From Squalus acanthias (Eukaryota), in NCBI GenBank assembly GCA_030390025.1, contig CM059431.1, positions 137,394,001 to 137,458,000 on the forward strand: a stretch of 64,000 nt of DNA, read 5' to 3'. Made by a program: the position numbers and the translations under genes. The notes under the pieces were generated by a model. It was not told the DNA's origin. It saw only the letters and a program-made list of their open reading frames with translations, and made no database searches. Shown piece by piece: positions 11,176 to 58,711 of the stretch; the first letter of the stretch is position 1; each line of letters starts with the position of its first letter.

Positions 11176-11250
11176 TCAGACTGTTGTAGGTTGGACCTTG
11201 GGGATTGTTGTTTGAGACGTGTTGTCCTGATCAATAGGCTCATGGGAAGG
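11176..11250 (-). CDS. MS4A-like copy A last exon ([24 protein letters not shown]), frameshifted relative to copy B
   Basis: TTTCTTTCTCAG acceptor; homologous to 54844-54957. Confidence 0.7.
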   Translation of the reverse strand, partial: PSHEPIDQDNTSQTTIPKVQPTTV

Positions 11251-11400
11251 CTGAGAAAGAAAACAGAATTGTCGGAAAACAGTAAATAAATAAACAAATA
11301 TATAAACATGCAAACAAACAAACTGAGGTAAACGATGATGATTTGCTCCACTAATGTTTGAAATTCCTCGATAAATGACAATCGCGGTACACGTTATAAT

Positions 11401-13915
11401 GGGCTGGAATTTGCTGTCAAAATAATTGTGAGGCTAAAAGCACTCACTGTTATTTCTTCTCAAATCGGACAGCTACTTTCAGCCAGCACAGTTGCACATT
11501 CAACACAAAAAACCTGGAGTTACTGTCCGAGATCCACCGCTATTCTCTAAGCTGCTCGAAAATAGCCTCTCGCTGGCTGGCTCCCCATTCAAATGTACTG
11601 AGCTGCGTGAATTTTCTATACTTGCCCGGTAGAGAGGGAATAATCTCGCCACAGAAAGTGAGGGATTGTCCATATCAGTCGAAGTAGCATTTTTAAAAGC
11701 GTGATCATTTTTAATTACTGACAAACAACCTCTCCAGCACTAATAATTAACTTTTACGAATGTGGAGTCTCATTCCTTCAGAATTTACATGTTCACGGAG
11801 ATTATTTTAAACATTAAAAATGTAAACAAATAGCTTATCTTTCTTCTGTCTCTTATTTCGATCTCTGAATCCAACCTTTCTTTTGCTTTCTCTATTTAGC
11901 TTTCAATACATGATTTGACATTGAATTCACTATGCTAACTTCCACTTCCACTTGCAGAATCTGCGCTGTTCCCTACTTCAATCCTTCAATATGATTGGTG
12001 AAGGGAATAAACAGTTTCTTGTTCTGTTCACACAGGTCCCAGATGCCCTGTAGAGAGTGCCGCAACATTTGTATCTCTTACTTACTGCAACTTCAAGTAC
12101 AAAAGGATATAGAAATTAAATGGACATCCACATCCTCAATGATGGCGCAGCCCAGTACACGAGTGCAAAAGACAAGGCTGAAGTTTTTGCAACCATCTTC
12201 AGCCAGAAGTGCCGAGTGGAAGAACCATATCAGTCTTCTCCTTAGTTCCCCACCATCAGAGAAGCCAGTCTTCAGCCAATTCAATTCATTCCACGTGAAA
12301 TCAAGAAACGGTTGAGCGCACTGGATACAGCATGCACCCCGACAACATCCTGGCTGTCGTGCTGAAGAGTTGTGCTAAAGGCCTAGCCGCGCCTCGAAAC
12401 AAGCTATTCCATCCGACAATGTGTAAAACTTCCCAGGTATGTCCTGCCCACAAAAAAGTAGGACAAATCCAATCCGAACAATTATAGCCCCATCATTTTG
12501 CTCACAATCATCAGCAAAGTGATGGAAGCTGTCTTCGATAGTGCTATCAAATGGCATTTGCTCGCCAATAACCTGCTCACCGAAGCTCAGTTTGCGTTCT
12601 GCCAGGACCACTCGGTTCCAGACCTCATTACAGCCTTGTTCCAAACATGGACAAAATAACTGAATTCCAGAGGTGAGCTGAAAGTGACTTCTCATGACAT
12701 CAAGGCAGCATTTGATCGAGTTTGACATGAACGAGCACTAGTAAAATTAAATTCAAAGCAATTCAGGGTGGGGGTGGAAATCTCCATTGTTTGGAGTCAT
12801 ACCACGCACAATGGAAGATGGTTGTGGTTGCTGCAGGTCAAACATCTCAGCCCCAGGACATTGATGCAGGAGTTCCTCAGGGCAGTATCCTAGGCCCAAC
12901 CATCTCCAGCTGGTTCATCAATGAACTTCCCACCATCATAAGGTCAGAAGTCGGGATGTTCGCTGGTGATTGCACGATGTTCAGTTCCATTCGCAACTCC
13001 TCGTATAAAGAAGCTGTCCATACAGGCATGCAGCAAGACCTGGACAGCATTCAGGCTTGGTCTGATAAGTAGCAAGTAACTTCCGTGCCACACAAGTGAA
13101 AGACAATGACTATCTCCAACAAGCGAGAATCTAACCACCGCACCTTGACATTTAACGGCATAATAATAGTCGAATCCCCCACCATCAACATCTTGGGGGT
13201 CACCATTGACCAGAAACCTAACTAGACAGTCACATAGATACCGTGGCCACAAGAGCAGGTCAGAGGCTGGATATTCTGCGGTCAGTGTCTCACCTCCTGA
13301 CTCCCCAAGGCCATTTTAACCATCTAAAAGGCACAAGCCGGGAGAGTGATGGAATACCCCACACTTGCCTGAATGAGTACAGCTCCAAAAACACTTAAGA
13401 AGCTCGACCCCATCCAGGACAAAGCAGCCCGTATGATTGACACCAAATACACCACATTAAGCATTCACTCCCTCCACCACCGGCGCACCGTGGCTGCAGT
13501 GTGTACCATCTACAAGATGCACTGTAGCAACTTGCCAAGGCTTCTTCCACAGCACCTCCCAAATCAGCGACTTCTTCCACCTAGAATGACAAGGGTAGCA
13601 GGCGCATGCGAACACTATAAACCGCAAGATCCCCTCCAAGTTACATACCATTCTGACTTGGAAATATATCGCCGATCCTTTATCGTTGCTGGGTCAAAAT
13701 CCTGGGACGCCCTCCCTAACAGCACTGTGGGAGTACCTTCACTACGCATACTGCAGCAGTTCAAGAGGGCAGCTCACCACCACCTTCTCAAGGGCAATTA
13801 GGAATGGGCAATACATGCTGGCGTTGCCAGCGACGCCCACATACCAGGAACGAATAAAAAAAGACGAACAAATGGTGGGCGCGGTTAGTCCGCTGGCTAC
13901 AGTAAATCCTAGCGC
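11401..13915. mobile_element. Non-autonomous DNA transposon (PIF/Harbinger-like) with a nested LINE
   Basis: Imperfect TIRs GGGCTGGAATTTGCTGT / ACAGTAAATCCTAGCGC, flanked by a 3-bp AAT duplication. Confidence 0.6.
12133..13862 (+). mobile_element. Decayed 5'-truncated CR1/L2-group LINE (RT region and 3' end)
   Basis: RT motifs GVPQGSILGP and FAGD (from FADD), many stops and frameshifts, A-rich 3' end. Confidence 0.85.
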
Positions 13916-14029
13916 AATATTTCAAATTGCAATACCTTTGCGTGCTATAAACCAATCTCCGATTTTTAAGAGTCAATATTCAGCAAAGGCGGACATATTG
14001 ATTTGTAATTTGGTCTTGTATCTACAAAC

Positions 14030-14155
14030 CTTATTGGCATGTATTTTGGAATGGTTCCACAACTCCTTGCCCTCGAAAATGGAAACGATAATTGATAACA
14101 ACAGATCCAATACTGCCAGCGGGTCGACAACGAGTACGACACTGAAAGGGTATAT
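14030..14155 (-). CDS. MS4A-like copy A exon 5 (TM4): IYPFSVVLVVDPLAVLDLLLSIIVSIFEGKELWNHSKIHANK
   Basis: CCACAG acceptor, AAG|GTTTGT donor, 126 nt, homologous to 53903-54028. Confidence 0.8.
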
Positions 14156-14829
14156 CTGTGGATCAGTGGCAAGAATATTTTCAGGGCAGTCAGAAATAAT
14201 ACGACTTCAGGCAACAAGAACTGTCGTACACACAGCGACAGCACAATTGAAGACGAATCTCAAAGAGAACTTACGAATTCTGGGCCAACAAAGAATATTG
14301 GGAGCAGAATTGATCTTCGCCAGTAATGCTAAACGGGCATCGGAAACCCGTTTCATGCTCCTCCGGATTTTCCTCTGCGATTGAAAAGAAAATCGGGAGG
14401 AGCGTAACACAGACTAATTTCACCCCCATTTTCTCAATATTAGGCGACCGCCGACAGGGCATCAAGAATATGTCTTCAGCTGAAAGCATATTTCAGTGTG
14501 GGGGAGGGAAATAATGGACCAGGGCGTGGAAATGTTAGTCAGCCCCTGTTTGCAAGTCTGACATTTGCATTTAGATAACAAATTGACTGCAATGTTTGAA
14601 GTCTGGAAGAACATTTCATTGAAGCTTCTCTGCACTCCATTCTGAGAAGGGAGCAGCCGCAAAACACAGGAGCTACAGCGCCGCCATAGGCAGGCGGGTG
14701 TAATTACAGCATAAACTCTGCTCGTTACAAAAGTGAACAAATGGAAATGAAATTGGAAAAGTTATAGCAGGTTGTACACATATTATGTCCGAACAGGTCA
14801 AAGTTACTTTAATATCCGCAGTACCAATT

Positions 14830-15180
14830 CATAGAATGATAGAATGATACAGCAGAGAAGGAGGCCATTCGGCCCATCCTGCGTGCGCTTGCACCTTGAA
14901 AGAAATATCCAAATAGACACACGCCCCTGCGCTTTCCCCATAGCCCCGCATTTTTTTACATTCAAGTATTTATCCAATTTCCTTTTGAAAATTAGAATTT
15001 AATCTGCTTCCACCATGCTTTCAGGCAATGCATTCCAGATCATAACAAGTCGCTGTGTAAAAAAACAATTCTCCTCATCTCCCCGCTGGTCCTTTTGCCA
15101 ATTACCTTTAGACTGTGTCCTCTGATTACCGACCCTCTGCTACTGGAATCAGTTTTTCATGATTTATTCTATTAAAAAAA
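14830..15180 (-). mobile_element. CR1 LINE 3' fragment
   Basis: Same 3'-end type as the fragment at 10316; boundaries approximate. Confidence 0.7.
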
Positions 15181-15609
15181 CATGATTCACATGACCAAAG
15201 AAATAAATCATATTGTTAGCTATTTGGAGATTTTGAGCAAGTTTATACTGCCTCTTTAAATATTTATATTAACTTCAAGCTTGTTTCCTGTATACATGAC
15301 TTCACAGGATGTCCGTTCATCCCATTGAAACGCTGAATTGACAGTGTATTAAGGTTACACTTCGTAAGATAAAAACCCAGAGCGGTCTTAGAACGCCTCT
15401 TAAAGGGATTTCTCACTGCTTCTCTCTCAAGTTGATCCGCCGACCATTGGGTTTATTACGCCTGTGTGTGCCTGGGAAATGCAAAGCGACGCAAAGCTGA
15501 ACTGTGAAGGGTAATCTCAATTGTTTTTATATGACTTTATTTATTTGTGCAATCAACCATAACACGGCCAGAGGGAGTGCTGATTTGAAACTGTTATTCA
15601 TGTATTAAG

Positions 15610-16040
15610 GGAGCTTTGCTAACGCTGTATAACACAGTGCTTATGCTTCAGTTGGAGTACTGTGGCCAATACTGGGCACCACAATTTTGGAATGATGTCA
15701 AAGTCTTAGAGAGGGCGCAGATTAGATTTTATAGAAAGTTACCAGGGATGAAAAACTTCAGTTACGTGGATAGACTAGAGAAACTGGGGCTGTTCTCCTT
15801 AGAGCAAAGAATGTTAAGGGAAAATTTGATCATGAAGGCGTTTGATAGATAAATAAAAGAGAAATCGGTTCCAATTGCAGAGCGGTCGGTACCCAGACCC
15901 ACAGATTTAAGGTAATTGGAAAATTAACCAGAGGCGACCTGAGTACAAAAGATATGCAGCGAGTTGTTGTGATCTGGAATGCACTGTCTGAAAGTGCGGT
16001 GGAAGCAGATTCAATAATAACTTTCAAAGGAGCATTGTAT
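15610..16040 (+). mobile_element. CR1 LINE ORF2 C-terminal fragment
   Basis: Translates to LYNTVLMLQLEYCGQYWAP...[13 protein letters not shown]. Confidence 0.75.
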
Positions 16041-16060
16041 AAAAACAGTTCTATACTTAC

Positions 16061-16205
16061 AGCCAAAGTAAAACACCAGAATCACAGATACAACCAGAAG
16101 GCAGAGAATGAGTGGGGTCCTAACCTGGATGTAAATGAACAACAGGACCAGACTGGCTGCACCAAGAAGGGCACTCATTGCACTCAGCGCCAGACAGGTC
16201 GCCAC
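16061..16205 (-). CDS. MS4A-like copy A exon 4 (TM3 and loop): VATCLALSAMSALLGAASLVLLFIYIQ...
   Basis: TTATTCTTCGAAG acceptor identical to that at 52683; GTAAGT donor; 145 nt (off-phase). An internal in-frame CAG|GTTAGG donor lies at 16125/16124. Confidence 0.75.
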
Positions 16206-17256
16206 CTTCGAAGAATAAGCAAAAGATTACTAAAATATTTGAATTTGGTGAGATCTTCACAATGCCATTAGTTGTCTTGGTGGAAAATCTCATTCAAAGC
16301 ACCCATCTAAAGACATTAATGAGTTCCAAATTCCATACAAAACGGATTTATTGCAATAAAAATAGTACCATAAAAGCTTACAGCACACAGTGCGGCCATT
16401 CGGTCCATAATGGCGGTGCTGGCTCTTTGAAAGAGCTCTCAAATTAGAGTTTTTTTTTCCTGGAAATAACATTTAACCTATAATGTCAGGATCTGTAGTT
16501 GGCATAAAGGACAAACCGAAGAATTGGTATTTATTTCAATCTAATTTGTAGAGGAAAGCGTTTTTTCTATTTTGGATTTCGCAGAGCAATCTGAGCAGTG
16601 TGAGTAGTGGGAAACTGCAACTGATCAGGGGTAGAGTCAAATGAACAAACAATGAAATATTTACATAGAAAATCTCGTCTAGACAGTCATGAGGAACACA
16701 GGAACTTAGGAACGGGAGTAGGCCATTCAGACCCTCGAAACTGTTCCGCCAATCAATTACATTATTTCTGATCTTCAGCTAACTACACCTTTCCGTCTTG
16801 GTTCCAAAGAGCTTTAATACTCCTGCCCAGTAAAAGTGTAATGAGAACAAGTGTCTAGAAATACAACTGGGCCTAGTGGGTAAAACACTTTGGGGTAGAA
16901 CTTAAAACGAGCTGCCGACTCGCTATCACTCGTTTTACTGTCAACGAGGTCTAAATTGAGCCCCATTGAAGGTAAAAAAGACAATATCGATGATGAATTC
17001 AATGGAACTGAATACTGGGCCGGACGTCTAACGGACGACCGATGCACTACCGCTTGCTTTTCCAAGCTGCAATTCTCCAATTTCATCCCCCAAACCTACC
17101 CAATTATAAGGGTTAACACATATCTGAACAATCCCAGTTAAAGTTTCTTTTCCAATACGTCCATAAACAGCTCAGCAACCAGAATGTCAAATTAGAGCAG
17201 TATTCCGTGCAATGGACTGTGGTGTTTAAATGGGGCGTCATCGTGGAGATACTTAC

Positions 17257-17313
17257 AAGGCCTGTAGATGATGTCTTTTCCACAATACACCACAGGCTCC
17301 CAGAAATAAGAAA
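17257..17313 (-). CDS. MS4A-like copy A exon 3 (TM2): FLISGSLWCIVEKTSSTGL
   Basis: TTCCCAG acceptor, GTAAGT donor, 57 nt; FxISGSL is the MS4A TM2 signature. Confidence 0.88.
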
Positions 17314-17779
17314 CTGGGAATGAAACGTGAAATATCAATTCCACATGATAAAGCCTGAGTATAATTAATGTAATACAGAATGATGACTAGCTCATTCAGC
17401 CTCTCGAGCCTGTTCCGCCGTTAATTAGATTATGGCTGATCTGTAACTTGACTTCATCTACTTGCCTTGGTTCCGTAACCCTTAATAAACGCATTTAACA
17501 TACATCTAGCAGCCTCAGTTTTGAAATTTCCAATTGAACCCTACCCTCAACAGCTATTGGAGGGAGACAGTACCAGATTCCCAATATCCTTTACGAGAAT
17601 AAGTGCTTTCTGACATAACTCCTGAATGGCCTACTACTAATTTTAAGGTTATGTTCTGGACTCCCCCACACGAGGAAATAATTTCTCTGTATCAACCATA
17701 TTATATACTGTCATCATCTTAACCACCTCAGTTAGATGACCCCTTAATCCTCTATACTCTTGAGCACGTAAAGCAAGGA

Positions 17780-18133
17780 TGACACTCCAGTGCAGTAATG
17801 AGGGATTGCTGTCGGAGGTGCCGTCTTTCGGATGAGACATTAAACCGCCCTCTCAGGTTGACGTAAAACATCCCGTGGCACTATTTCGGAGAACAGCAGG
17901 GGAGTTATCCCCGGTATCCTGGCCAATATTTCTCCCTCAAACAACATAACCAAAACAGATTATTTGGTCATTATCACATTGCTGTTAGTGGGAGCTTGCT
18001 GTGCGCAAATTTGCTGCTGCGTTTCCCACATTACAACTGTGACTCCACTTCAAAAGTATTTCATTGGCTGCAGAGCGCTTTGAGACGTCCGGTGGTCGGG
18101 AAAGGCGTTATATGAATGCAAGTCTTTCTTTCT
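17780..18133 (+). mobile_element. Deu-domain SINE (SacSINE1/AmnSINE1-like), 5'-truncated
   Basis: Deu core GGAGGTGCCGTCTTTCGGATGAGAC...GTAAAACATCCCGTGGCAC and a tail ending GCAAGTCTTTCTTT; related copies occur elsewhere in the window. Confidence 0.75.
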
Positions 18134-18611
18134 CGAGGGAATGCAAGTCTGGTCTATGCAACCCGTCCACGTAATTAAAATTAATTTAACCCCGGTATAA
18201 TTCTGGTGAACTATAATATCTGACTTAAATTCTGAAACATAATTTTCTGACTAATTATTCACAGACCATCAAAAGTTCAATACGATAGCAATTAACAAAT
18301 AACAATATCGATACATAAAGATTTTAAATGAAGCTGGGTGCAGATATTATTATTTTTGCCTTTACCTTCGGAATTTTCGTTCGTCTGACATCCCGTTTGT
18401 TCGCTATTGTAACGGGAATGTTATTCGGTTTAGAATAGTTGATGCCTCCGATAAAATAGCGAGAATCAGAAGAATATTATAGCGAGGCGCTACACTTCCA
18501 TGCATAAAATTGTAAAAAATAAGTCGTCTGACAGCTCATCTAATCAATTCTAACCAAATTTAAATTCCTCCAAACTGATTCTACTATAGTCTTTAAAGGA
18601 CGGAAACTCAC

Positions 18612-18722
18612 CGACAGCCCGCTGCACAAGAGTACTCTGTGTCCTCCTGCCATCGATATCGAATTCAGAATTAAAGGCGACCAGATTATTAGTAAAAATA
18701 TTCCCAACAGAATCTGCATAAC
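18612..18722 (-). CDS. MS4A-like copy A exon 2 (TM1): VMQILLGIFLLIIWSPLILNSISMAGGHRVLLCSGLS
   Basis: CTCTTTTAG acceptor, GTGAGT donor, 111 nt, homologous to 42779-42889. Confidence 0.88.
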
Positions 18723-19183
18723 CTAAAAGAGAACAGGTATCGCACTGTGGAAAACAAGCTAACATGTAGAAAATCATACAAAATAGAACCGTGTGTGTGA
18801 GAGCGAAAGAGCCGGGTAGTGAGAGAGAGGAGAGAGAGATCAAGGTAAGAGACAAGTAAAACTTAGTTGAACGCTGATTGAGATGATTCGATTAGCACAT
18901 TGTTAGAAAGCTTTAAGATCATTAAATGGTCAAGGTGTCCCACTATTCTCCCATTAGTATATTTAGTGTTAGACCAGATGTGGGAGAAAGGGGAACTTGA
19001 CTCTTGTATGAACAATAAACAGTTTGGAAACGCAAAGACACAAATTGATACAAACCCAGCTCAAGTAACAGGCTGAAAAGAGATTAGTTGCCAAGACACC
19101 ATCTACCACAGTAAAACATAAACATGGACCTACTTACTGCATTATAAACAAAGTTTGTGGAACAGAGGCCAGGTCCGAATAAT

Positions 19184-19345
19184 GGCCTAGAAATTCACTC
19201 CGGCGGTGAGGCAAAATGGGCGGTATCGGATCGGCTGCCCAGATATCCCCAGTTATATTCAGTCCTATTGACCGGCGCTGTGAATAGCAGCCCCCTACCC
19301 GATACCGCCTGTTTTGCGCCAGCGCCCGAGACGAATTTCTAGCCT
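19184..19345. mobile_element. Short palindromic MITE (Harbinger-like)
   Basis: TIRs GGCCTAGAAATTC / GAATTTCTAGCCT; a related relic lies at about 54096-54188. Confidence 0.55.
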
Positions 19346-20020
19346 AAAAAGCGGGGTAAACACCTGAAAAAGTGGCCTCGGCAAAACGTGCAACTGTATA
19401 TTACGTAGGCTCAGGCCAAGCTTGTATTATAGTAAAAAAATAGAAACTGTTTGTCCCCAAGGCTGAGCGTTCTCGGGTTGGTCAGGAGCCACGCAGCCAC
19501 AGGGGTATCCTGGAGGGATGGCGCTGGTCGCTCCATGCCTGGGAAACATGGGCTGCGTGGTTCTCTTGGCGGTGGGTGCGCTCTCAGGGTCAGTCGTAGA
19601 CATGCAGGCAACCTAGAGCCGAAAGTGATAACTCCGGGCCGGGAAACCAGTTTGTTTACTTTGCATGTCATCTTGTCATTAAATTTAACACTGCAGAACA
19701 GTTATATAAAATCTAATACTGTTATTATTCAATGTAATAAAGTTTGCTATTATAAAAAAACTAATTTGTTCATGAACCATGAGCTGAGTTATTGTCGCCG
19801 GACTAACAACCCTTTGTTACGACGATAACCACGGGGGAAATTCTCCAACAACCTATCCCCGTGGACCATATTAAACATTCACTCCCTTCACCACCGGCGC
19901 ACCATGGCTGCAGTGTTGCACCATCTACAGGATGCACTGCAGCAACTCGCCAAGGCTTCTTAAACGGCACTGCCCAAACCCGGGAACTCCACAACCCAGA
20001 AGGACAAGGGCAACAGAGAC

Positions 20021-20381
20021 GGGGTGGAGCAACAGCGGCGAGGCGGCGGCGGTAAAAGGCGGCAGCGACCAGGTAGGCCCACAGAGGCGGCGGACCTGGG
20101 TGGAGCAGCAGCGGCGAGGCGGCGGCGGTAAAAGGCGGCAGCGACCAGGTAGGCCCACAGAGGCGGCGGACCTGGGTGGAGCAACAGCGGCGAGGCGGCG
20201 GCGGTAAAAGGCGGCAGCGACCAGGTAGGCCCACAGAGGCGGCGGACCTGGGTGGAGCAACAGCGGCGAGGCGGCGGCGGTAAAAGGCGGAAGCGACCAG
20301 GTAGGCCCACAGAGGCGGCGGACCTGGGTGGAGCAACAGCGGCGAGGCGGTGGCGATAAAAGGCGGCAGCGACCAGGTAGG
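20021..20381 (+). repeat. GC-rich 76-bp tandem repeat (about 4.7 copies) at the CR1 5' end
   Basis: GGTGGAGC recurs ending at 20030, 20106, 20182, 20258 and 20334. Confidence 0.95.
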
Positions 20382-20597
20382 CTTTCACCAAGCCGAGAGC
20401 AGGAGAGAGGTAAAAAATAATCGAAGTGTGACGTCACCAGAAAGCAGGTAAGTCATTGGTTGATGAGTATTTCTCATTTTTTTATACAAAACTTCAATTC
20501 CATAGTTTATAGTTTCTCGGGTATCTGTGGTGTAGCGGAGACTGCTGGCATAAATTAACTGAAGGGTAAATAATAAATTTTTAATTAATTACATAGA

Positions 20598-21554
20598 ATG
20601 GGAGAGCAGGTGATGTGTTACTGCTGCAATATGTGGGAGCTGGTGGACACCATTGATGTTCACGGTGAACACATTTGCAGTAAGTGTTGGCTGCTCGAGG
20701 AACTCCGGCTCCGTGTTGATGAGCTGGAGTCCGAGCTTCAAACACTGCGACACATCAGGGAGGGGGAGAGTTACCTGGACTCCGTGTTTCAGGAGGTAGT
20801 CACACCAATTAGAGTAAGTAATTCAGAAGTAGCCCGTGGTCAGGGACAGGAAGGTGTGACTAAGAGTGAGGCAGGTACAGGGATCCAGGAGGTAGTGTTG
20901 GAGGAGCCGCAGCCCTTGCTCTTGTCCAACAGGTTCGAGGCTCTTACTCCCTGTGTGGATAGGAGCGGGGACTGCAGGGAGGATGAGCAACCTGGCCACA
21001 GCACCGTGGTAAGGGGGGCCATTCAAGTGGGGGGAGTAAAAAGAAATGTTGTAGTGGTAGGGGATAGTATCATTAGGGGGATAGATAGGGTTCTTTGCAG
21101 CCAAGAGCGAGAGTCCCGAAGGCTGTGTTGCCTGCCCGGTGCCAGGGTTAAGGACATCTCCTCTGGGCTGGAGAGAAACTTGGAGTGGGAGGGGGAGGAT
21201 CCAGTTGTCGTGGTCCATGTTGGTACCAATGACATAGATAGGACAAGGAAAGAGGTTCTGCTGAGGGAGTTTGAGCAGCTAGGGGCCAAATTAAAAAGCA
21301 AAACCTCGGTGGTAATAATCTCTGGATTACTACCTGAGCCACGAGCAAATTTGGCTAGGGTAAATAAAATCAGGGAGTTGAATGTGTGGCTCAAAGACTG
21401 GTGTGGGAAAAATGGGTTTTGCTTCTTGGGACACTGGCACCAGTACTGGGGCAGGAGAGAGCTGTTCCGTTGGGACTGACTTCACTTGGCCAGTGCTGGG
21501 ACTAGTGTCCTGGCGAATCGAATAACTAGGGCTGTGGAGAGGGCTTTAAACTAA
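20598..21554 (+). pseudogene. CR1 ORF1 (zinc finger/leucine zipper plus SGNH/GDSL esterase), one premature stop at 21477
   Basis: CxxC...CxxC, a coiled coil, VVGDSII, CLPGA, HVGTND and D*LHL (from DGLHL). Confidence 0.9.
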
Positions 21555-21669
21555 TTAGTGGGGGGGAGGTTTCAAGAGAGCAAAAAATAAAAATGACAAC
21601 AGAGAGGGTCATAGACATAGGTAGCAGTAGGGGAACCACAAATCAGAGCGTGGCAGGAAGGGACAGAGT

Positions 21670-24543: not shown

Positions 24544-25286
24544 GTCTAGGTTCGGATCGGTCATGGCCCTGTGGGTAGTGGAGCGGGCCCAGGGACCGTG
24601 TGGCCTGATTCTGCTCCTATTTCGTGTGTGCAATTCTGTTAGATGCAGGAGATGGTTCTGTGATAGTAGATTGGCGGTTAGGATCAGATCAGCCATGATC
24701 TTATTGAATGGCGGAGCAGGCTCGAGGGGCCGATTGGCCTACTCCTGCTCCTATTTCTTATGTTCTTATGTTCTTATGGGAACACCATAAACTCCGCTCC
24801 AAGTCACACACCACCCTGACATGGGCAGATATCCGCCGTTCCTTCATCGTCACTGCGTCAAAACCCTTGCGATCCTTGGCTGACAGCACTGTGGGAGCAC
24901 ATTCACCACATGGATTGTAACTATTCAACAAGAAGGCGAACCATGATTTTCTCCAGGGGACATGGTCTGGGAAATAAATGCTGACCTTGCTGGCGAGGCC
25001 TATATCCCCAGAATTCATTTTAAAAGTATAGCTCAGACATGTACTCATGAATATATTTCCCGGTTGGTAGTCCCAGTGAAATTTTACATGTGATCACAGT
25101 GAAGTTATTTATAATTTCGCTACTAGTAGCGACGGGAACTAACCTCCATCAGCTAATTGATGATATCCCTACACATAGCGACTGGAACCCTTTTACTCAA
25201 GGCGTGTTGAAACTAAAGCATTGCATGTTGAAATTGTGATCTATTTGAGAAGGAATAAATGAATAAAAGAAATGCTTTAATCTTAC

Positions 25287-34189: not shown

Positions 34190-34199
34190 TCAATAACCC

Positions 34200-39272: not shown

Positions 39273-39328
39273 CCCGAAGCGTCTCTCCTCTGATAGGACG
39301 AAGTGTAATTTCCAGACTCACATTACAG
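39273..39328 (+). other. Candidate 5' UTR exon of MS4A-like copy B
   Basis: CTATTTCAG acceptor and CAG|GTCAGT donor; the donor is conserved in the paralogue at 27656. Confidence 0.4.
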
Positions 39329-44300: not shown

Positions 44301-47300
44301 TTCTGGTATTATTCTTGTACCTCTTTATTGCACTTTCTCCAGAGCCGCTATATCCTTTTTGTAATATGGAGCCCGGAACACTCCACAGTATTCTATGAGT
44401 CGTCTAACAATGCTTCTATATAAGTTCAACATAAACTCTCTTCTTTTCAATACTATTCCTCTAGAAATGAAATCCAGTGCTATTCCTCTACAACTGAAAC
44501 CCAGTTCTCTGTCTGCATTTTAATAGACTTCTTAATCTGCGTCTCTACTTTTAATGATTTATGAATCAGTACCCCTAGATCTCTTTGATCCTCTACCCCA
44601 TTCAGACTCTTATTTTCCTATCAGTTTATGGCCTCCTTATACCTCCTACCAAGATGTACCAGCTCACACTTATCTATATTTAAATTAATTTACCAACTGC
44701 CCGCCCAGTGTGCAAGCTTATTAACGTCTTCTTGTATTTTGTCGCAGTTTTCCTCAGTATTAAGTTTATCCCCCAATTTGATTCACTCCAGAAATTTTGA
44801 AATTGTACTTCCGATCCTGGGACCAAATCATTTATGTAAATGATTATATAACTGCTGTTCCCGTTTTTCGTGATTTCACTACGCGGAGCCCTAAATCTCT
44901 CTGCTCCTCCACAGTGCAAACCTTCTCACCATTTAGAAAATACACTGATCCATTTTCTCAGGTCCACAGTGAATGCACTGTGCCACAGTTTTGCCCACTC
45001 ACTTAATTTATCAATGTCCCAGTAAAACTTTCTGCCCCCATTTCCAAAATTTACTGTGCCACCTAACTTGTTGTCGACAGTAAACTTGTTAACATGGTTC
45101 TCTATTCCTTCATCTAAGGCATTGATAGATATAGTGATAAGCTGAGGCCTCAGCCCAGATCCCTGGGCGACACCACTAATCACAGCCTGTGAAGGTTCAA
45201 ACAGAAAGAAATGTTTCATAGTTTTAGAGCGTTGTTATAATTATAGACAGGCTTTATCATCAGAAGTTGATATGTCACATTTTTTTCAGTTTATAATTTG
45301 TTGGTGCATATGGTGTGTTCTGGAAAAGACAACATCTACAATCCTTGTAAGTATCTCCATAATGGCTTTCCACTTCAACAAAGCTCTCCATTGCAAGAAG
45401 TAATGTTTCATCTTGAAATTCTGGTTACTGGGCTGATTATGTGCATATTAGCAAAGTAACCGTCAACTGGGATTGTTCAAGCAACTATTAGCCCCTATAA
45501 TGAGGGTGGATCTTGACTTTGTGCGATAGTGTCAAAGTAGTGGTAGCCAGTCAGCAGCCCATCTTACATCTCCCCCTATTTATATTTCCATTGACTGCAA
45601 TGGGATGGAAATTGGGGCGGGGTTGATAAAATGGGCGGTTAAATCGACATCACTTGTTTTACACGATTGTCGAAATTAAAAATTAGACTCAATGGGACTA
45701 TATGTTGACTTTGTGCGATAGTGTAAAACGTGTGATAGCGAATCTGCAGCACATTTTACCTTTCTACCGTATAACATTTCTAGAGGAATACAACTCAAAA
45801 GCAGAGAGTTTATATTAAACTGATACAAAACCTTGGTTAGACCACACTTAGAGTATTGTGCACTATTCTGATCTCCATATGACAAAAGGGTTATAGAGGC
45901 ACTGCAGAAAGTAACAAATACAAACAATTTACAAGGATGATGGCAGAAAAGAATGGTTACAACTATCAGAAAAGACCGAGAAGGCTGGATATATTTTCGC
46001 TTGAAAAGAGCAAAATGTGAGATGAATTGAAATTACGAAGAAGTTCGCTATGGGAGACGTAGAGAAAATGATTCCACTTGTGTGTGGGGGGAAGGGGGGG
46101 TCCACCAAAACTAAAGTCTTAAATATAAGACAGTCACTACTGAATCCAATAACGAATTAATGAGATGCTTCTTTACTCAGAGAGTGGAGAGAAATAATTG
46201 CATTTATGTAGCGCCTTTTCTACAATTCTACAATTGATGCATGTAACGGGAAGCTGTATACGTACATGAGGGAGAAAGGAAAAGAAGGATAGTGTGAGAT
46301 GAATTATGTTGGGAGAGGCCTCTGTGGAGCATCGACATGTTGGTGTGGTGTAAAATTCTATGTAATTCTAAGTAATATATATCTTCAGAGGACTTCAATA
46401 GAAAGGGGGAACCAGTCCCCGAACTCGTAGGGAGGGAGAGAGGTAAAAATAATCGAGGTGTGACGTCACCAGAAAGCAGGTAAGTAATTGGTTGGTGAGT
46501 ATTTCTCTCTTTTTAAACTTAAACTCCGTGGGGGAAAAATTCAGTCGCGCCCCGTTTGGGCCGCAATTATCGGCCGGGCGCAAAGATTAGCGCCTGGCGC
46601 TAATTATCGCCACCGACTGCAAATTTGGCTTTTATCACCCCTGGAGGTGATTGCAGCGCTAAATCAGGCGCTTCACACCTGTTTTATGGCGCAAAGGCCG
46701 AGGAGCGAGGCGCTACCTCAGAGTGCTGGCGAAGCTCATGTAATGTCAGTCAGTAATGGAACACACACACAATGGCACGGGCCAGTTCTTAAAGGGGATG
46801 GTTAATCTTGCTTTCCATCCACATCCTACTCATTGTAGCCTTGAATCTCGGCCTGGAGAGACCTGCACATCAAATGTGCTGGAAAGAACAATGGAGAGTA
46901 CCAGGCAAAGAGCTCAGAGTGCAGCCCCCCACAGTCTCTGCTAAAACGAAAAAGGAATGGCAAATCAACATGAACCTGCAAAGTGCTGCTCAATACCCAA
47001 AACTCCTTCACACAACGTTGAATCTCTCCAGAAGTCTCTCCCTCTCTCTCTCAGAATGCGTAGTTCAAAAATGGCACCAACAATAAAAGGCAGGAAGCGG
47101 TCACCTTTAAATAGTGCTCCCCCTTTCCCTTCATGACTGCAGAACGCTCCCCTCAACCTGTCATTGCTAGCGTCAGGCGGTAAGGCAGGGGGCGCCACTC
47201 AATATCCGCTCCGGGGCGATACCGGGGCGTTGCGCACTCGAGTGACGTCATGATCTGCTGGCGCAGGAGATCGTGGCGGTAGTGTTTAGCGCCGCTGCAA

Positions 47301-50300
47301 AATGTCTAGTTAAGTTCGCGAGCGGCGCAAACATCGCTGCGCCCGGGCGCTAGCTGCTTTGCGCCCCATTAGCGCCCTCTTAAGGCGCTAATGGGAGGTG
47401 CAACCAACTGAATTTTTCCCCCTGTGGGTTGTAGTTAATAAGGCCTTTCTGGTGCAGAGTGACTGTTGGTAAACCATTTAACTGGTGTAATTTAGAGGGA
47501 TTGATTTAATTTAAATCTAATTAATTAGAGGGGATACTAGCATCTATAATCGGGCAGATGGACCCCATTGAGGCTCACAGTGATTACATCTGTGACAAGT
47601 GTCTGCTGCTACAGGAACTCCAGCTTCGTATTGATGAGCTGGAGTCTGAGCTTCAGACACTGCAACACATCAGGGTAGGGGAGAAGTACCTGGACTTTGT
47701 GTTTCAGGAGGTGGTCACACCTATGAAGTTAATTAATTCAGATGTAGCCCATGCTCAGGGACAGGACGGTGTGATTACGAGTGAGGCAGGTACGGGGATC
47801 CAGGAGGTAGTGTTGGAGGAGCCGCAGCCCTTGCTCTTGTCCAACAGGTTCGAGGTCTTACTCCCTGTGGGGACGGGAGCAGGGACTGCAGGGAGGATGA
47901 GCAACCTGGCCACAGCACCGTGGAACGGGGGGCAATTCAAGAGGGGGGAGTAAATAGAAATGTTGTAGTGGTAGGGGAATAGTATTATTAGGGGGATAGA
48001 TAGAGTTCTCTGCAGCCGAGAGCGAGAGTCCCATAGGCTGTGTTGCCTGCCCGGTGCCAGGGTTAAGGACATCTCCTCTGGGCTGGAAAGAAACTTGCAG
48101 TGGGAGGGGGTGGATCCAGTTGTCGTGGTCCATGTTGGTACAAACGACGTAGATAAGACAAGGAAGCCGCTTCTGTTAAAGGAGTATGAGCAGCTAGGGG
48201 TCAAATTAAAAAACACAACCTCAAGGGTAATAATCTCTGGATTATTACCTGAGCCACGAGCGAATTTGGCTCGGACAAATAAAATTAGGGAGTTAAATGA
48301 GTGTCTCAAAGATTGGTGTGGGAAAAATGGGTTTTGCTTCCTGGGACACTGGCACCAGTACTGGGGCAGGAGGGAGCTGTTCCATTTGGACGGGCTTCAC
48401 TTGGCCAGTGCTGGGACAAGAGTCCTGGCGGATCATATAACTAGGGCTGTAGAGAGGGCTTTAAACTAACTAGTGGGGGGGAGGTTCCTAGAGAGCAAAT
48501 AAAAAAAATGACAACAGAGAAGGTCATAGACTTAGGTGGCAGTGGGGAAATTAAAAACCAGAGTGTGTCAGGAAGGGGCAGAAGGTATGGAGTAAAAGGT
48601 AAAGTAATAAAAAGGGCAAAAGCAGGAACTAAGTGTCACAAAACATATTTGAAAGTTCTCTATCTGAATGCACGTAGCATTCGTAACAAAATAGACGAGT
48701 TAATGACACAAATAACTACATATGGGTATGATCTTGTGGCTATTACAGAAAAATGGCTGTAGGGTGACAATGCCTGGGAATTAAACATACCAGGTTATTT
48801 AACGATCTAGAAGGACAGGCAGGAAGGAAGGGGAGGTGGGGTGGCTATGTTAATAAAGGAAGGAATCACTGTAATACAGAGAAATGATATTGGGTCAAAA
48901 GATCAGGATAATGAAACAGTTTGGGTGGAGATAAGGAATAATAAGGGGGAAAAAACACTAGTGGGCGTAGTCTATAGGCCTCCGAACAGTTGCAACTCTG
49001 TTGGACGGAGTATCAATCAGGAAATAGTTGAGGCTTGTACTAAGGGAACATCTTTAATTATGGGGGATTTTAACTCCCATATTAATTGGACAAATCAAAT
49101 TGGGCAGGACTGCCTTGAGGATGAGTTAATTGAGTGTATTAGGGATGGGTTTCTTCAGCAGTATGTAACTGAACCGACCAGGGGGCAAGCAACCTTAGAT
49201 CTGGTCCTGTGTAACGAGACAGAATTAATTAAAAATGTCCTAGTAAAGGATCCCCTTGGAATGAGAGACTATAACATGTTTGAATTCCATATTCAATTAG
49301 AGGGTGAGAAGGTTGGATCTCAAACAAGCATGCTAAGCTTGAATAAAGGAGACTATGAAGGTATGCGAGCGGAATAGAGTAGAGTGGATTAGGAAAATAG
49401 ATTAAAGGGTAAGACGATACATGATCAGTGGTGTACATTTAAGGAGTTATTTTACAACTTCCAAAAAATATATATTCCACTGAGAAGAAAAGGCTGTAAA
49501 AGAAAAGACAGTCATCTGTGGCTAAGTAAAGAAATTAAGGATAGTATTCGACTAAAAACAAGGGTGAATAAGGTAGCCAAATCTAGTGGGAGGATAGAGG
49601 ATTGGGAAAACTTTAAAAGACAGCAAAAAATAACAAAAAGATCGATTAAGAAAGGGAAGATAGATTATGAAAGTAAATTAGCAAAACATAGAAAAACAGA
49701 TAGTAAGAGTTTTATATAAAAAGAAAAAGGGTGGCTAAAGTAAATGTTGGTCCCTTAGAGGATGAGACCGGGAAATTAATGATGGGAAATATGGAGATGG
49801 CAAATACACTGAATGGATATTTTGTATCAGTCTTTACAGTAGAGGACACTAAAAAATATCCTAACACTGGACAAACAGGGGGCTATGGGGGGGAGGAGCT
49901 AAACACGATCAAAATCACTAAGGAAGTGGTACTCGGTAAAATAATGGGACTCAAGGCGGATAAATCACTTGGACCTGATGGCTTACATCCGAGGGTCTTG
50001 AGGGAAGTGGCAGTAGGGATTGTGGATGCATTGGTAATAATTTTCCAAAACACCCTGGACTCAGCAAAGATCCCGGCGGCAGACTGGAAAACTGCTAATG
50101 TAACACCCTTATTTAAAAAGGGCAGTAGACAGAAGGCTGGAAACTATAGACCGGTTAGCCTAACATCCGTGGTAGGTAAAATGTTGGCGTCCATTATTAA
50201 GGAGACAGTAACGGGACATTTGGATAATCATAATTTGATAGGACAAAGTCAGAATGTTTTTATGAAGGGGAAGTCATGTTTGACAAATTTGCTAGAGTTC

Positions 50301-53300
50301 TTTGAGGAAGTAACATACAGGCTGGATAAAGGGAACCAGTGGATGTGGTGTATTTAGACTTCCAAAAGGCATTTGACAAGGTGCCACACAAAAGATTATT
50401 GCTTAAGATAATAAATCACGGGATTGGGGGTAATATTCTGGCATGGATAGAGGATTGGCTAACTAACAGAAGACAGAGAGTTGGGATAAATGGTTCATTC
50501 TCAGACTGGGATTCAGGAACTAGTGGTGTTCCGCAGGGGTCGGTGCTGGGTCCCCAACTCTTTACAATCTATCTTAACGATTTGGAGGAGGGGACCGAGT
50601 GTAACATATAAAAGTTTGCAGATGATACTAAGGTGGGAGGGAAAGTAGTGAGTGAGGAGGACATAAAAAATCTGCAAAGGGACATAGACAGACTAAGTAA
50701 GTGGGTAGAGATTTGGCAGATGGAATGCAATACTGGAAAGTGTGAGGTTATGCACTTTGGCAGGAAAAGTAGTAGAGCAAGTTATTATCTTAATGGCAAG
50801 AAACTGGAACATACTGAAGTACAAAGGGATCTGGGGTTCCTGGTGCACGAAACTCAAAAGGTTAGTATGCAGGAGCAGCAAGTGATTAAGAAGGCCAATG
50901 GAATGTTGGATTTCATTGCTAGGGGGATAGAATATAAAAATAGGGAGGTATTGCTTCAGTTGTACAAGGTATTGGTGAGACCGCACCTGGAATACTGCAT
51001 ACAGTTTTGGTGTCCATACTTAAGAAAAGACATACTTGCTCTCAAGTCAGTACAAAGAAGGTTCACTCGGTTAATCCCGGGGATGAGGGGATGGACATAT
51101 GAGGAGAGGTTGGGTAGATTGGGACTATACTCATTGGAGTTCAGAAGAATGAGAGGCGATCTTATTGAAACCTATAAGATTGTGAAGGGGTTGGATCGGG
51201 TGGATGCGGGGAGGATGTTCCCGATGATGGGTGAAACTAGAACTAGGGGGCATAGTCTTAGAATAAGGGGCTGCTCTTTCAAAACTGAGATGAGAAGGAA
51301 CTACTTCACTCAGAGGGGGGTAGGTCCATGGAATATGCTGCCCCAAAAAGCTGTAAAAGCTACATCATTACATTAGTTTTAAACATAAATAGACAGTTTC
51401 CTAGAAGTAAAGGGAATTAAGGGTTACGGGGAGCGGGCAGGAATTTGGACATGAGTCTAGGTTCGGATGGCCCAGTGGGTAGCGTAGCGGGCCCAGGGGC
51501 CGTGTAGCCTGATCCTGCTCCTATTTCGTATGTCCAATTCTGTTAGGTTCAGGAGATGGTTCTGTGATAGTAGATTGGCGGTTAGGATCAGATCAGCCAT
51601 GATCTTATTGAATGGCGGAGCAGGCTCGAGGGGCCAATTGGCCTACTCCTGCTCCTATTTCTTATGTTCTTATGAAATAAAAATGGGGATAAATGAAAAC
51701 GTATTTCCGACTCGCTACCACAGTTTTACACTAGCGCCCAATGTCAAGATCAATCCCACTGTGTTTTACTCATTAGCAGTAGCTGTACTCCTAAACACTT
51801 CTTCTAATTGCTTCCTAGATTGCATTAAAGGTTAACTAGAAAATATTCATCTTTGTAAATATTATGTTATCTGTTCATTTTATTGATCAATATAGTTTTC
51901 TATTTCATACTACATATTTACTCCCTAGAAAACCGTTTCTCCAACAAATTAGAATTATAGAACAATATGCACAGGAGGAGGCCATTCTGCCCGTCGAGCC
52001 TGTGCTGGCTCTTTGAAAGAGCTATCCAATTATTCCAATTCCCCCTGTTCTTTCCCCATTTAGCCGTGTATTTTTGTTCCTCTTTAAGTACATATAGAAT
52101 TCCCTTTTTAAAGTCACTATTGATTCTGTTTCCATCATCCTTTCAGGCAGTGTATTCCAGATTGTAACCAATTGTCATAAATATGAGCTCTCTGGTTACC
52201 ACCCTTATGCCAGTAGAAACAGTCTCTCCCTATCTACTCAAAACAATTCCTAATTTCGAACACCTCTATTATATCTACCCATAAGCCATCTATTCTGAGG
52301 AGAACAATCCCAGCTTCTCCAGTGTCTACACATAACTGAATTCCCTCATCCCATGCACCATTCTGGTAAATCTCCTCTGCTCCGTTTCCAAGGTCTTGAG
52401 ACCCTTCCTAAAGTGTGGTTCCTAGAAATTAGATTGAACAATTCTCAGTTCCATTGTTTATGCTTTATGCTAACCATATGTCCTACTCTGCTGGGTCAAA
52501 AGCCATTCCTAAAAATAAAATGTATTTCTTAATTTTGGAAAATTAGTATTGGATGGAATTTCAAACCCCTTCCCATCTTGAGACAAATGCTTTGAATGAG
52601 AATTTTTGCAAACATTGTTGCAAGTTTTGTGAAAATACAACCAACTACATATATCTGAATAAACTACTGCTTATTCTTCGAAGTTGGCGGCGTATCTGAT
52701 GCTGAATATGATCAGTGCCCTTATTACCATAGCGAATCTGGTCCAGCTTTCCATTGGAAGTGTCTGCGATTCTTGGTCCATTACTTTGGATGTAAGTACA
52801 GAATTGCAATCTTAATACGTGACTAACATCTTTAAATCAACGAAGACTCAATTTGCATCTGTTCTGATTTTTTTTAAGAGAATGTACAGCACAGAAAGAG
52901 GTAAATGTGCCCCAGCAGATCTATTTAGTGTTTATGCACCGCACGGGCCTCCTCTCACCTTACTTCATCTAACCCTATCAACAGAGGCAGATTTTCTTTT
53001 ACCCTCATGTGTTTATCTCACTTCCACTTAAATACTTCTATAATATGCACCAGAACCTTTCCATGTGGTAGCGAGTTCCACATTGTCACAACTCTCTGGT
53101 TAAAAAGATCCTGCTGAATTATTTGTTGAATTTATTCGTGACTAACTTATATTTATGGTCCCTAGTTTTGGACACCTCTACACGTGGAAACATCTCTACA
53201 TCTAACCTGCCTTAATTTTAAAGACCTCTATTAGGTCACCTCTCAGCCTTCTCTATTCTAGAGAAAAGAGCCCACCTTAACAGTCTGTGACGCATTCTCC

Positions 53301-54957
53301 GACAAAATTGCCAAAAGCATCTTGCTTGAATTGCCTGAAAGGGCAGTGGAAGCAGATTTAAAAGTAACTTTCAAAATGGAATTGGTTAAATACTTGGAAA
53401 GGATTAATTGCAGGTCTATGGAGAAAGAGCAAAGGGGAGTGGGAGAAATTGCACAGCTCCTTCAAAGAGCCGGCACAGGCACGATAGGCCGAACGGCCAC
53501 CTTCTGTGCTGTATGGTTCTATGATTCACATCCTAGTCCAATATTTCCATCCCCCGCCCTCGAACAACCCTTCATCTGAAGAATTATTCTTGACTCCCTG
53601 TGGCTGGTCGCCTAGTATTAAAACAAGGGGGGTGAAATTGATTTGCAGCAAAGCGCCTGATGTTCTGCTCAATTGAACTCAATTGGAAAGGAAATCGGGA
53701 TGAGAGTAAAATGGGCGTCCGATAGCGAAGACCAATTTCAATCCCAACGTTCGTCATTGGCCCAAAATTGTCAATGTCTAATCCTAAATTTCAACGTGAG
53801 TTTCTCCTTCAATGGTGCTGTCGCTGGGAGTTGCACCATTCTCCTTGCAAGAAGCAGTCTTAGTTCCGATTGTCTTAACATATTCTTGCAACTGATCCAC
53901 AGAGATACCGTTTCGGCCTCGTACTCGTTCTCTTCCTCCTGGGGCTGTTGGAGCTGTCAGTATCAATCGTCGTTTCCATTTTCGGATGCAAGATGTTGTG
54001 GAAAAATTCTAAAATACAATTCAATAAGGTTGGTAGTTACAATGCCACATTGCCAATCAATATTTCCGGTTCAGCTGCTTAGAAAGAAAGACCTTGGGTG
54101 AGAAATTATTTTCAGGCGGTGGCGCAAAACGGGCGGCCGATCCGATCCGCCCATTTTGCGCCACATTCCGAGACGAATTTCTCGGCTCTTGCATTTATAA
54201 AGTGCAGATCAAGACCCCGGGACGTCCCAAAGTGCTTGACATCCAATGAAACACTTTTAAACTGTAGTTAAGGCTGTAATGTTGGAAACTCGGTAGTCAA
54301 TTAGTGCACAGCAAGTTCCCATAAACATCAATTTTATAAATGAGCCGGATACCTGATTATTTTATGTTACACTTTCAGAGATAAATATTTGTCCCGGAAA
54401 CGCGGGAGAACTTCCCTGCCTTACTTCTAAATAGTGCCATGGAATCTATTGCATCCACCTGAGAGAGCAGATTCGGCCTCGGTTTAACTTCTCATCCGAA
54501 TGATCACACCTCTGACAGTGCAGTGCTTCCTGACTACCGCACCAGGACTGTCATCTTACATTTTGCTGCTGAAGTCTCTGGAGTGGGATTCTGAACCCAC
54601 AACATTCTGACTCAGAGGCGAGCGAGCTATCACCTGAGCCAAGGGGGGCACACTATAGCTATTTGATCAATTCAGAATTTGGTGTTCACTTCCCAAAGTC
54701 TTGCAATGAGAAATCTCGTAACGTACCCTGCAATACATCTGGCATGGAGGAAATGATCATCATTTATGTCAGTTTGTTTGCGTATAATTAATTATTTGTT
54801 TATTTATTTAATATTTAGACATCAATTCAGTTTTCCCTTTCAGCCTCCAAATAAGCCTACTGATCAGGACAACACCTCTCAAACACCGATACCCCAAGGT
54901 CCGACCTACAGCAGTCTGATGCCTCCAACACCGGTGTACAATGGATTTCAATTATAG
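41165..54957 (+). CDS. MS4A-family (CD20/FcεRIβ-like membrane-spanning 4-domain) gene copy B, intact, 226 aa
   Basis: join(41165-41329, 42779-42889, 45290-45346, 52684-52791, 53903-54028, 54844-54957). All introns are GT-AG phase 0 with no stops. Four hydrophobic segments carry MS4A motifs ([38 protein letters not shown]). Orthology not assignable by eye. Confidence 0.88.
42779..42889 (+). CDS. MS4A-like copy B exon 2 (TM1): [37 protein letters not shown]
   Basis: CTCTTTTAG acceptor and GTGAGT donor. Confidence 0.88.
43225..45190 (-). mobile_element. Cluster of nested decayed CR1 fragments
   Basis: Minus-strand RT remnants ([20 protein letters not shown]) and CR1 tails at about 43225 and 43890. 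Confidence 0.7.
45290..45346 (+). CDS. MS4A-like copy B exon 3 (TM2): [19 protein letters not shown]
   Basis: TTTTTTTCAG acceptor, GTAAGT donor, 57 nt, homologous to 17257-17313. Confidence 0.88.
46400..51673 (+). mobile_element. Near-full-length decayed CR1 LINE (copy 2), sense orientation within an intron of MS4A-like copy B
   Basis: 5' UTR core shared with copy 1; ORF1 about 47558-48469 and ORF2 48508-~51450 with stops and frameshifts; (TTCTTATG)n tail. Confidence 0.93.
46530..47422. mobile_element. Non-autonomous PIF/Harbinger-like transposon nested in the CR1 5' UTR
   Basis: Perfect 16-bp TIR GGGGGAAAAATTCAGT / ACTGAATTTTTCCCCC, GC-rich subterminal arms, flanks CGT/TGT. Confidence 0.8.
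52684..52791 (+). CDS. MS4A-like copy B exon 4 (TM3 and loop): [36 protein letters not shown]
   Basis: TTCTTCGAAG acceptor, GAT|GTAAGT donor, 108 nt. Confidence 0.85.
53903..54028 (+). CDS. MS4A-like copy B exon 5 (TM4): [42 protein letters not shown]
   Basis: CCACAG acceptor, AAG|GTTGGT donor; LE...FGCK is the MS4A TM4 signature. Confidence 0.9.
54190..54645 (-). mobile_element. Deu-domain SINE
   Basis: Reverse-complement similarity to the 17780 and 28745 copies, including the tRNA-like head. Confidence 0.65.
54844..54957 (+). CDS. MS4A-like copy B last exon: [37 protein letters not shown]
   Basis: TTTTCCCTTTCAG acceptor, TAG stop, AATAAA at 55096-55101. Confidence 0.85.
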   Translation, partial: PPNKPTDQDNTSQTPIPQGPTYSSLMPPTPVYNGFQL

Positions 54958-58705: not shown

Positions 58706-58711
58706 TTGGCC

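Follow-up and report, generated by a model that had tools for sequence, protein, structure and literature searches.

In mammals, the MS4A-related paralogues TMEM176A and TMEM176B lie in opposite orientation after a duplication (PMC4806298) and are described as a divergently paired, co-expressed pair (PMC12672016). Expansions of the MS4A (CD20) family itself have been reported from zebrafish, with 21 genes including clustered recent paralogues (PMC2826416), and from ascidians, in which certain MS4A clades are under positive selection (bioRxiv 10.1101/2022.08.15.492342). For sharks, a survey of the family listed three MS4A genes from expressed sequence tags and saw no restriction to the immune system (PMC2826416). 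The present work concerns a head-to-head pair of divergent MS4A genes, A on the reverse and B on the forward strand, in a 64,000-nt stretch of the Squalus acanthias genome (assembly GCA_030390025.1, contig CM059431.1, positions 137,394,001 to 137,458,000; hereafter the window), and the amplified family to which the pair belongs, in which reading frames appear to have been kept while the exon for the outer loop was broken repeatedly. The three known shark genes may or may not include this lineage. Like TMEM176A/TMEM176B, A and B are paralogues in opposite orientation; the mammalian genes, however, form a single pair for which co-regulation is reported, and the likeness drawn here is one of orientation. 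Clustered recent paralogues are found here as in zebrafish, and site-level selection as in the ascidian clades. In the latter, the average ratio of non-synonymous to synonymous substitution rates (dN/dS, ω) stays below 1 throughout and the selected sites lie in outer loops, whereas average ω was about 1.2 here. Unlike in both of these expansions, what is duplicated is an inverted pair, and its loop exon is in the course of being lost.

Self-BLAST of the window revealed collinear inverted blocks, the outermost at 10173-10318/54965-55114 and the innermost at 34190-34373/38370-38552 (positions are those within the window unless a contig is named), and such a block surrounds each of the six coding exons of A and B. 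The homologous arms with six matching exons that had been proposed in a preliminary description of this DNA are thus real, and their origin by inverted duplication is supported by a non-coding A-B distance of 0.28. The splice sites were also correctly described as conserved, all ten introns being GT-AG. Exons 1, 2, 3 and 5 have the sizes claimed in both genes; exon 4 has 108 nt in B and 145 nt in A, and the latter is not a multiple of three. One block, 25113-26481/40122-41504, spans 1393 columns (75%, E reported as 0); the stretch 25.5-26.5/40.1-41.1 kb, listed before as alignable intron, does align but sits upstream of the ATG exon, probably in an intron of the 5' untranslated region (5'-UTR). 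Among the family signatures reported, KALG occurs in both genes, while QI and FxISGSL are found in A only and LE...FGCK in B only; B has HI where A has QI, and FIICWCI in place of FxISGSL. Coordinates are collected in the table below.

Features of the inverted A/B pair, given as positions within the window (TM, transmembrane segment).
Feature	Position	Strand	Method
A arm of inverted duplication (gene A and upstream blocks)	10173..34373	-	self-BLAST
A last coding exon, 75 nt, ends T-T-V	11176..11250	-	
A exon 5, 126 nt, TM4	14030..14155	-	
A exon 4, frameshifted with matching donor (145 nt), in frame with internal donor after 16125 (81 nt)	16061..16205	-	
A exon 3, 57 nt, FLISGSL	17257..17313	-	
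A exon 2, 111 nt, TM1, first loop, start of TM2	18612..18722	-	
A coding exon 1, 165 coding nt, KALG at end; acceptor 14 nt before ATG at 25451	25287..25465	-	
Candidate 5'-UTR splice donor of A, GTAAGT	27293..27298	-	copy alignment
Innermost conserved non-coding block, A copy	34190..34373	-	self-BLAST and cassette comparison
Non-duplicated centre, 4.0 kb	34374..38369	.	self-BLAST
B arm of inverted duplication (gene B and upstream blocks)	38370..55114	+	self-BLAST
Innermost conserved non-coding block, B copy	38370..38552	+	self-BLAST and cassette comparison
Candidate 5'-UTR splice donor of B, GTAAGT	39660..39665	+	copy alignment
B coding exon 1, 165 coding nt; acceptor 14 nt before ATG at 41165	41151..41329	+	
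B exon 2, 111 nt	42779..42889	+	
B exon 3, 57 nt	45290..45346	+	
B exon 4, 108 nt, in frame, 39 nt below the 147-nt form	52684..52791	+	
B exon 5, 126 nt, LE...FGCK	53903..54028	+	
B last coding exon, 114 nt, with YxxL	54844..54957	+	

Membership of A and B in the MS4A lineage, which had been suggested from motifs, is near certain as judged from profile searches and from a tree that includes a shark sister clade. Direct searches were negative: 11 single-exon peptides of the window gave no CD20 match in Pfam, a genome search with PF04103 yielded nine matches but none in the cassette cluster described below, and word-indexed protein searches with exon 1 of the A/B family and of a related gene on contig C5 returned no matches. 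When a profile of exon 5 was run exhaustively against 1.84 billion representative sequences, eight proteins were found (E up to 0.001), all of which match Pfam CD20 (PF04103), five of them above its cut-off of 27.9 bits. Two orthologues cover nearly the whole CD20 profile below the cut-off (23.7 bits, E 5.6e-5; 19.3 bits, E 1.3e-3). A profile built from four CD20-positive proteins scored 38.1 bits with B, 19.0 with A (spliced at the internal donor) and 48.4 with an intact A copy, compared to 12.3 for the best shuffled sequence; without the shark sister clade it gave only 9.4-9.6 bits. Likewise, a profile of both shark clades matched the structures of FceRI-beta (E 6e-14) and CD20 (E 1.5e-9), while the A/B-lineage profile alone reached CD20 at E 0.011, ranked under a dopamine-receptor match at 0.006. 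It is because the sister clade forms a bridge to CD20-positive shark proteins that A and B were filed as divergent MS4As.

The nearest proteins are shark models, in agreement with the earlier assignment of the DNA to a cartilaginous fish. Three orthologues of the A/B lineage, all annotated as 'uncharacterized' in RefSeq, are LOC119966860 (Scyliorhinus canicula, XP_038654752.1), LOC122544136 (Chiloscyllium plagiosum, XP_043539111.1) and LOC132834492 (Hemiscyllium ocellatum, XP_060709394.1). Over 199-218 residues they share 44-50% identity with B, and they fall into one clade with A and B (support 100/100) in a tree of shark MS4As and two other CD20-family proteins. The bamboo-shark orthologues have a tail tyrosine and a T-x-V/L end, as do B-type copies. 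By contrast to the about 45 copies in head-to-head cassettes with a mostly broken loop exon found here, each orthologue has a full two-cysteine loop and forms one 90%-identity cluster per species or genus (among the top 8000 candidates). The best tree placed B with the galeomorph orthologues (support 85-90), and a single A+B clade was not rejected (approximately unbiased test, p 0.09). The sister clade comprises the shark 'high affinity immunoglobulin epsilon receptor subunit beta-like' models XP_038673191.1 and XP_072110571.1 and the gene on C5, which is 62% identical to the CD20-positive XP_038673191.1 and has phase-0 exons of 165/111/57/147/126 nt and an acceptor 14 nt before the ATG, as in the A/B family. 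Sister-clade proteins differ in that they pass the CD20 cut-off (53-58 bits), retain PWW and are just 27% identical to B. The canonical MS4A on C5 (5.771-5.781 Mb; L154, L156, L157) shows an open stretch of five exons; three further exon-2-type MS4A matches lie on C2617 (L148-L150).

Further, the predicted four-helix bundle of orthologue P0005 (predicted local distance difference test, pLDDT, 65) matched FceRI-beta (Z 11.7, root-mean-square deviation 4.1, 144 aligned) and CD20 (Z 11.1, 3.0, 133 aligned); unrelated bundles tie, and the predicted fold is compatible with, not specific for, MS4A. When modelled from its sequence alone, P0005 gave a poor structure (pLDDT 56), for which Foldseek found no match. 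LGxxQI, GYPFWG and FIISGSLS are listed as MS4A motifs in PMC11663944, as is a second outer loop with two cysteines for most members, with human exceptions. LG-x-x-QI and FxISGSL are present in A and most A copies; PFW/PWW is replaced across the whole A/B family. The two-cysteine loop is found in copies with a 147-nt exon 4 and in the orthologues, whereas B keeps one cysteine and A (internal donor) none. In view of the human exceptions, missing cysteines do not exclude MS4A membership.

The picture of a single pair had to be given up, as the pair is one of about 20 cassettes with B truncated in most. A genome search with exon 1 returned 47 rows corresponding to 45 loci after merging of two split matches (25 A-type and 20 B-type; genome search counts are lower bounds, and the type was checked on DNA for 30 of the 45). 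There were 19 head-to-head pairs within 40 kb, each consisting of one A and one B with ATGs 11.5-28 kb apart; seven exon-1 loci were unpaired, including two A copies that adjoin B remnants. A 7-Mb cluster on C7 (137.4-144.6 Mb) holds eight cassettes and two lone A exon-1 loci, and of the 13 pairs on unplaced contigs some are near-identical twins and may be alleles. A copies and B copies split with a bootstrap of 100. Amplification of the cassette to about 20 copies is near certain. Exons 4 and 5 of B type were detected at just five of the 20 B loci, and the acceptor 14 nt before the ATG is kept in 12/12 A but only 4/18 B copies, so that most B copies are truncated relics. Among three complete B copies scored, one was open and two were broken in every splice model.

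In the cassette C867:722178-759652, B is nearest to window B and A is nearest to the A at 141.39 Mb on C7 (bootstrap 91); it is possible that this cassette is recombinant or converted. The B copy at C7:141412831-141431742 has exons 3-5 doubled in tandem, 15 kb apart. Seven pyrin-domain exons (PF02758) are located on C7 between 141955629 and 144493317 among A/B cassettes (L158-L162); those at 144363497 (-) and 144401882 (+) face away from each other, and an MS4A-type exon of 114 nt in the gene at 144.40 Mb belongs to another lineage. None of the seven PF02758 places on C7 falls in the window, where three pyrin peptides found nothing under E 0.37; these searches gave no sign that A or B had lost an upstream pyrin exon.

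Exon 4 is the part of the A genes that is altered most characteristically. Its intact in-frame form has 147 nt and encodes the outer loop with two cysteines; an insertion in A was rejected as explanation, since 147 nt is the in-frame form and B has a deletion. When window A is read through the matching exon-4 donor, the wrong frame is entered and the first stop occurs at codon 201 because 145 nt is not a multiple of three, and the description of two ordinary tetraspan genes is not supported as it stands. Use of the internal donor CAG/GTTAGG after 16125 results in an open frame of 204 amino acids, in whose hydropathy profile TM3 and TM4 merge; the frame also opens when exon 4 is skipped. All ten matching splice dinucleotides, the acceptor at -14 and the upstream and internal donors are intact in window A, and it has no stop beyond the shifted frame.

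Exon 4 is broken in 16 of 18 A copies and whole in two. Ten copies are frameshifted (146 or 145 nt), one has lost the acceptor, one has a stop and has lost the donor, and in four exon 4 was missing from the search results, which the sequence confirms for one. The four scored B copies all have deletions in this exon (108, 108, 136 and 139 nt). None of the ten frameshifted A copies has lost the internal GT, and in each of them nt 1-81 of exon 4 are intact; the ten together contain one stop vs about 10.6 expected, and no indel in exon 5 and the first 45 nt of exon 6 vs about six expected. Their old exon-4 donor has lost its GT in two cases and is altered at +5/+6 in two more. Of 16 fully scored A copies, one was open with full exon 4, seven with the internal donor and ten with exon 4 skipped, while six were broken under every splice model. 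The simplest reading would be that A genes splice around the loop half of this exon. Window A would accordingly be predicted to encode a 204-amino-acid four-pass protein without outer cysteine loop and with a T-T-V end; that it is expressed today we consider an even chance. In the sister subfamily, one database model (P0006) is missing exon 4 and another (P0002) exon 2, in both cases in frame; exon-4 skipping therefore has a precedent among predicted isoforms.

The last exon of A carries a 1-nt deletion relative to B that is common to all A copies and removes the tail tyrosine. Of 17 A copies, 15 end in [S/T]-x-[V/I/L], a putative class I PDZ-binding end. Ends in the other frame are T-T-L in the bamboo-shark orthologues and T-P-V in a B copy on C205, whereas the catshark orthologue and window B have no end of this type. 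With two A copies set aside whose end was lost through indels, no breaking substitutions were counted vs 3.9 expected (P 0.02, post hoc).

Gene B of the window splices to an open frame of 226 amino acids. Its exon 4 has a 39-nt in-frame deletion compared to the 147-nt form, by which one of the two loop cysteines is gone, and its hydropathy profile has four peaks, the second of just 1.5. B would be predicted to cross the membrane four times, to have an outer loop of reduced length and to carry a tyrosine in its tail. The codon of a second tail tyrosine occupies the position of a TAG in the C205 B copy and most A copies; an ITAM in B was rejected, as this codon has taken the place of a stop and NGF rather than xxL/I comes after it. 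In three RNA contig sets from one study (their kind guessed), no match to 52640-55130 was listed. Over 52000-55400 their cover lay on old repeats; exons 4 and 6 had none, exon 5 had trace depth in one run, and there was no exon joint among the rows listed, which speaks neither for nor against expression of B.

Selection was assessed on 22 of the 45 copies (18 A, 4 B; likely twins and truncated B copies were left out) over 191 codons, namely those of exons 1, 2, 3 and 5 together with codons 1-23 of exon 4 and 1-15 of exon 6. Family ω was 1.16-1.22, with a log-likelihood gain of 1.0-2.0 over ω = 1, and hence not clearly different from 1. Disabling changes were nevertheless rare. Nonsense events numbered 7-8 vs about 23 simulated, and 0-1 vs about 11 on inner branches; in neutral simulations, eight or fewer stops occurred in at most 1 of 2000 runs and one or none on inner branches in 0 of 2000. 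Splice dinucleotides were altered in 8 of 211 cases, each in one copy, vs about 22 expected. Exons 1, 2, 3 and 5 had one indel vs about 37 at the flanking rate, although this expectation is drawn from non-coding flanks and may overstate the rate; exon lengths of 165/111/57/126 nt were constant in all but one case. In the clade of frameshifted A copies, exons 1-3, 5 and 6 stayed clean over a tree length of 0.51 after the frameshift. The rarity of disabling changes indicates that the lineage was translated while diversifying, and past selection on the reading frames of the A/B family is very probable. Site-class models favoured M2a over M1a (likelihood-ratio statistic 18.1, p 1e-4; a class with ω about 2), in a test that was run on a fixed tree and ignores gene conversion, with C867 looking mosaic, as well as CpG effects. 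The seven top sites lie in the N-terminus and the membrane exons, the loop half of exon 4 being excluded from the test.

The history towards which we lean slightly is that of a birth-and-death MS4A family in which frames were kept and the loop exon was repeatedly lost, with a drift toward loop-less proteins. An ancestral shark MS4A gene, with orthologues surviving in catshark and bamboo sharks, was duplicated in inverted orientation to give a conservative B and a derived A, and the whole A+B block was then segmentally duplicated to about 20 copies, some unplaced ones of which may be alleles. Exons 4-6 and the first acceptor were lost from most B copies. In the A lineage, on statistical grounds, selection preserved frames and splice sites while the protein sequence changed no more slowly than under neutrality; exon 4 was disrupted repeatedly in its loop half, and window A would be spliced at the internal exon-4 donor into its loop-less protein. 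If MS4A functions described in PMC11663944 are taken as a model, A and B proteins would likeliest act as oligomerising membrane partner subunits or channels and not as loop-binding receptors. Several points, besides the limits of the indel and site-class tests named above, weigh against this history. Window A and B differ by dN 0.26 and dS 0.26 (dN/dS 1.01), near the non-coding distance, as dead DNA would show; the deficit of stops on terminal branches is not significant (P about 0.08), and that downstream of the frameshift is borderline by itself (P 0.03-0.07). The control with truncated B copies is weak (exon 1 indels: two in 13 B vs none in 11 A at similar tree length). TM4 of window A contains Asp and Pro, and its protein scores just 19 bits on our home-made MS4A profile; window B has unusual residues instead of FISG and PWW, and a C867 copy 99% identical to it carries a stop in exon 2. 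The models of A and B are predictions from sequence. An alternative is a family that was alive while expanding and whose deficits of stops and indels record past selection, but in which window A, along with most or all of the copies, has since become a pseudogene and the internal donor is without significance. In its favour are lesions chiefly on terminal branches, a pairwise dN/dS of about 1, the six A and two complete B copies broken under every splice model, and disabling changes in the C867 near-twins of both window genes. We regard it as unlikely, if well worth considering, given the intact splice sites, acceptor and donors of window A and the clean exons of its clade since the frameshift.

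That the whole array was dead DNA from the outset, a broken inverted duplicate amplified neutrally, is hardly credible: a global ω not clearly off 1 and about equal divergence of exons and non-coding DNA are in line with it, but it is already largely refuted by the stop simulations and indel counts, neutral runs almost never giving so few stops, and neither the constancy of exon lengths nor decay of the -14 acceptor in B copies only agrees with it. The two arms also bear on regulation. The preliminary description postulated an upstream interval of about 4 kb shared by both genes; this is merely the non-duplicated centre, and the candidate 5'-UTR donors of A and B are 12.4 kb apart (ATGs 15.7 kb). 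In these donors (GTAAGT) the GT is kept in 21 of 22 aligned copies, implying, 1.5-1.8 kb ahead of each ATG exon, a first exon without coding sequence. The innermost non-coding blocks have an A-B p-distance of 0.16 vs 0.24 for pooled non-coding DNA, and the centre between them is about 2.3-2.7 kb in most other cassettes compared to 4 kb in the window. A promoter shared by A and B might possibly exist. One could go further and regard A and B as an obligate, co-regulated pair with a shared divergent control region, amplified as a functional unit after the manner of TMEM176A/TMEM176B; mouse Tmem176a/b are described as opposite in orientation, duplicated and co-regulated (PMC4806298). The 19 of 19 A+B pairs and the retention of inner blocks and 5' donor on both arms even where B is truncated would suit such a unit, yet constant pairing is automatic when one block is copied, the first-exon donors are far apart, and with exons 4-5 kept at five of 20 B loci and one of three scored complete B copies open, most B copies are dead and most cassettes are unable to yield both proteins, for which reason we find an obligate pair quite improbable. 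Only a little less doubtful is the idea that loop loss was repeatedly favoured, that loop-less A proteins with their PDZ-type T-T-V tail might serve as variable partners or modulators of tyrosine-bearing B, and that the cluster shared with pyrin-MS4A genes might be an undescribed innate-immune or sensory locus.

Some 45 copies of a single lineage, arranged in paired cassettes beside pyrin-domain MS4A genes, would reopen the question of the MS4A role in the earliest jawed vertebrates. In other MS4A families it is the outer loop that diversifies, and a family that keeps its frames and drops the loop would be a natural test of MS4A without loop. If A is dead, what is left is a well-documented birth-and-death cluster and little more. 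No description of the cassette cluster was found in the literature seen on shark, elasmobranch or chondrichthyan MS4A or on the three LOC identifiers, though subscription papers and supplements may hold one. Expansions of MS4A genes are known, and so is a head-to-head pair of MS4A-related genes; an inverted cassette that has been amplified and has repeatedly lost its loop exon is apparently undescribed.

Finally, repeats and mobile elements of the window were recorded; an Rfam scan of the window gave no match. A satellite with an 83-bp unit occupies 1-9866 (about 122 copies, 92% match), runs past the left window edge and stops 300 bp from the 3' homology of A. Two 4.1-kb copies of a long interspersed nuclear element (LINE), at 20644-24770 (+) and 47559-51674 (+), are 92% identical, and both encode a GDSL-esterase-like ORF1 and a reverse transcriptase. 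As they lie in different introns in the same orientation, they were inserted after the inversion. The LINE of A is missing from the two nearest paralogues, judged by an exon 1-2 spacing of about 1.8 kb vs 6.6 kb. Just before it, in the first coding intron of A, there is a G+C-rich tandem array with a 76-bp unit (20022-20382; 4.8 copies, 97%). An element of long-terminal-repeat type at 57679-61332 (+) is broken: its reverse transcriptase, RNase H and integrase each occupy a stop-bounded frame of their own. Twenty copies of a 25-bp unit form a tandem array at 57980-58483.

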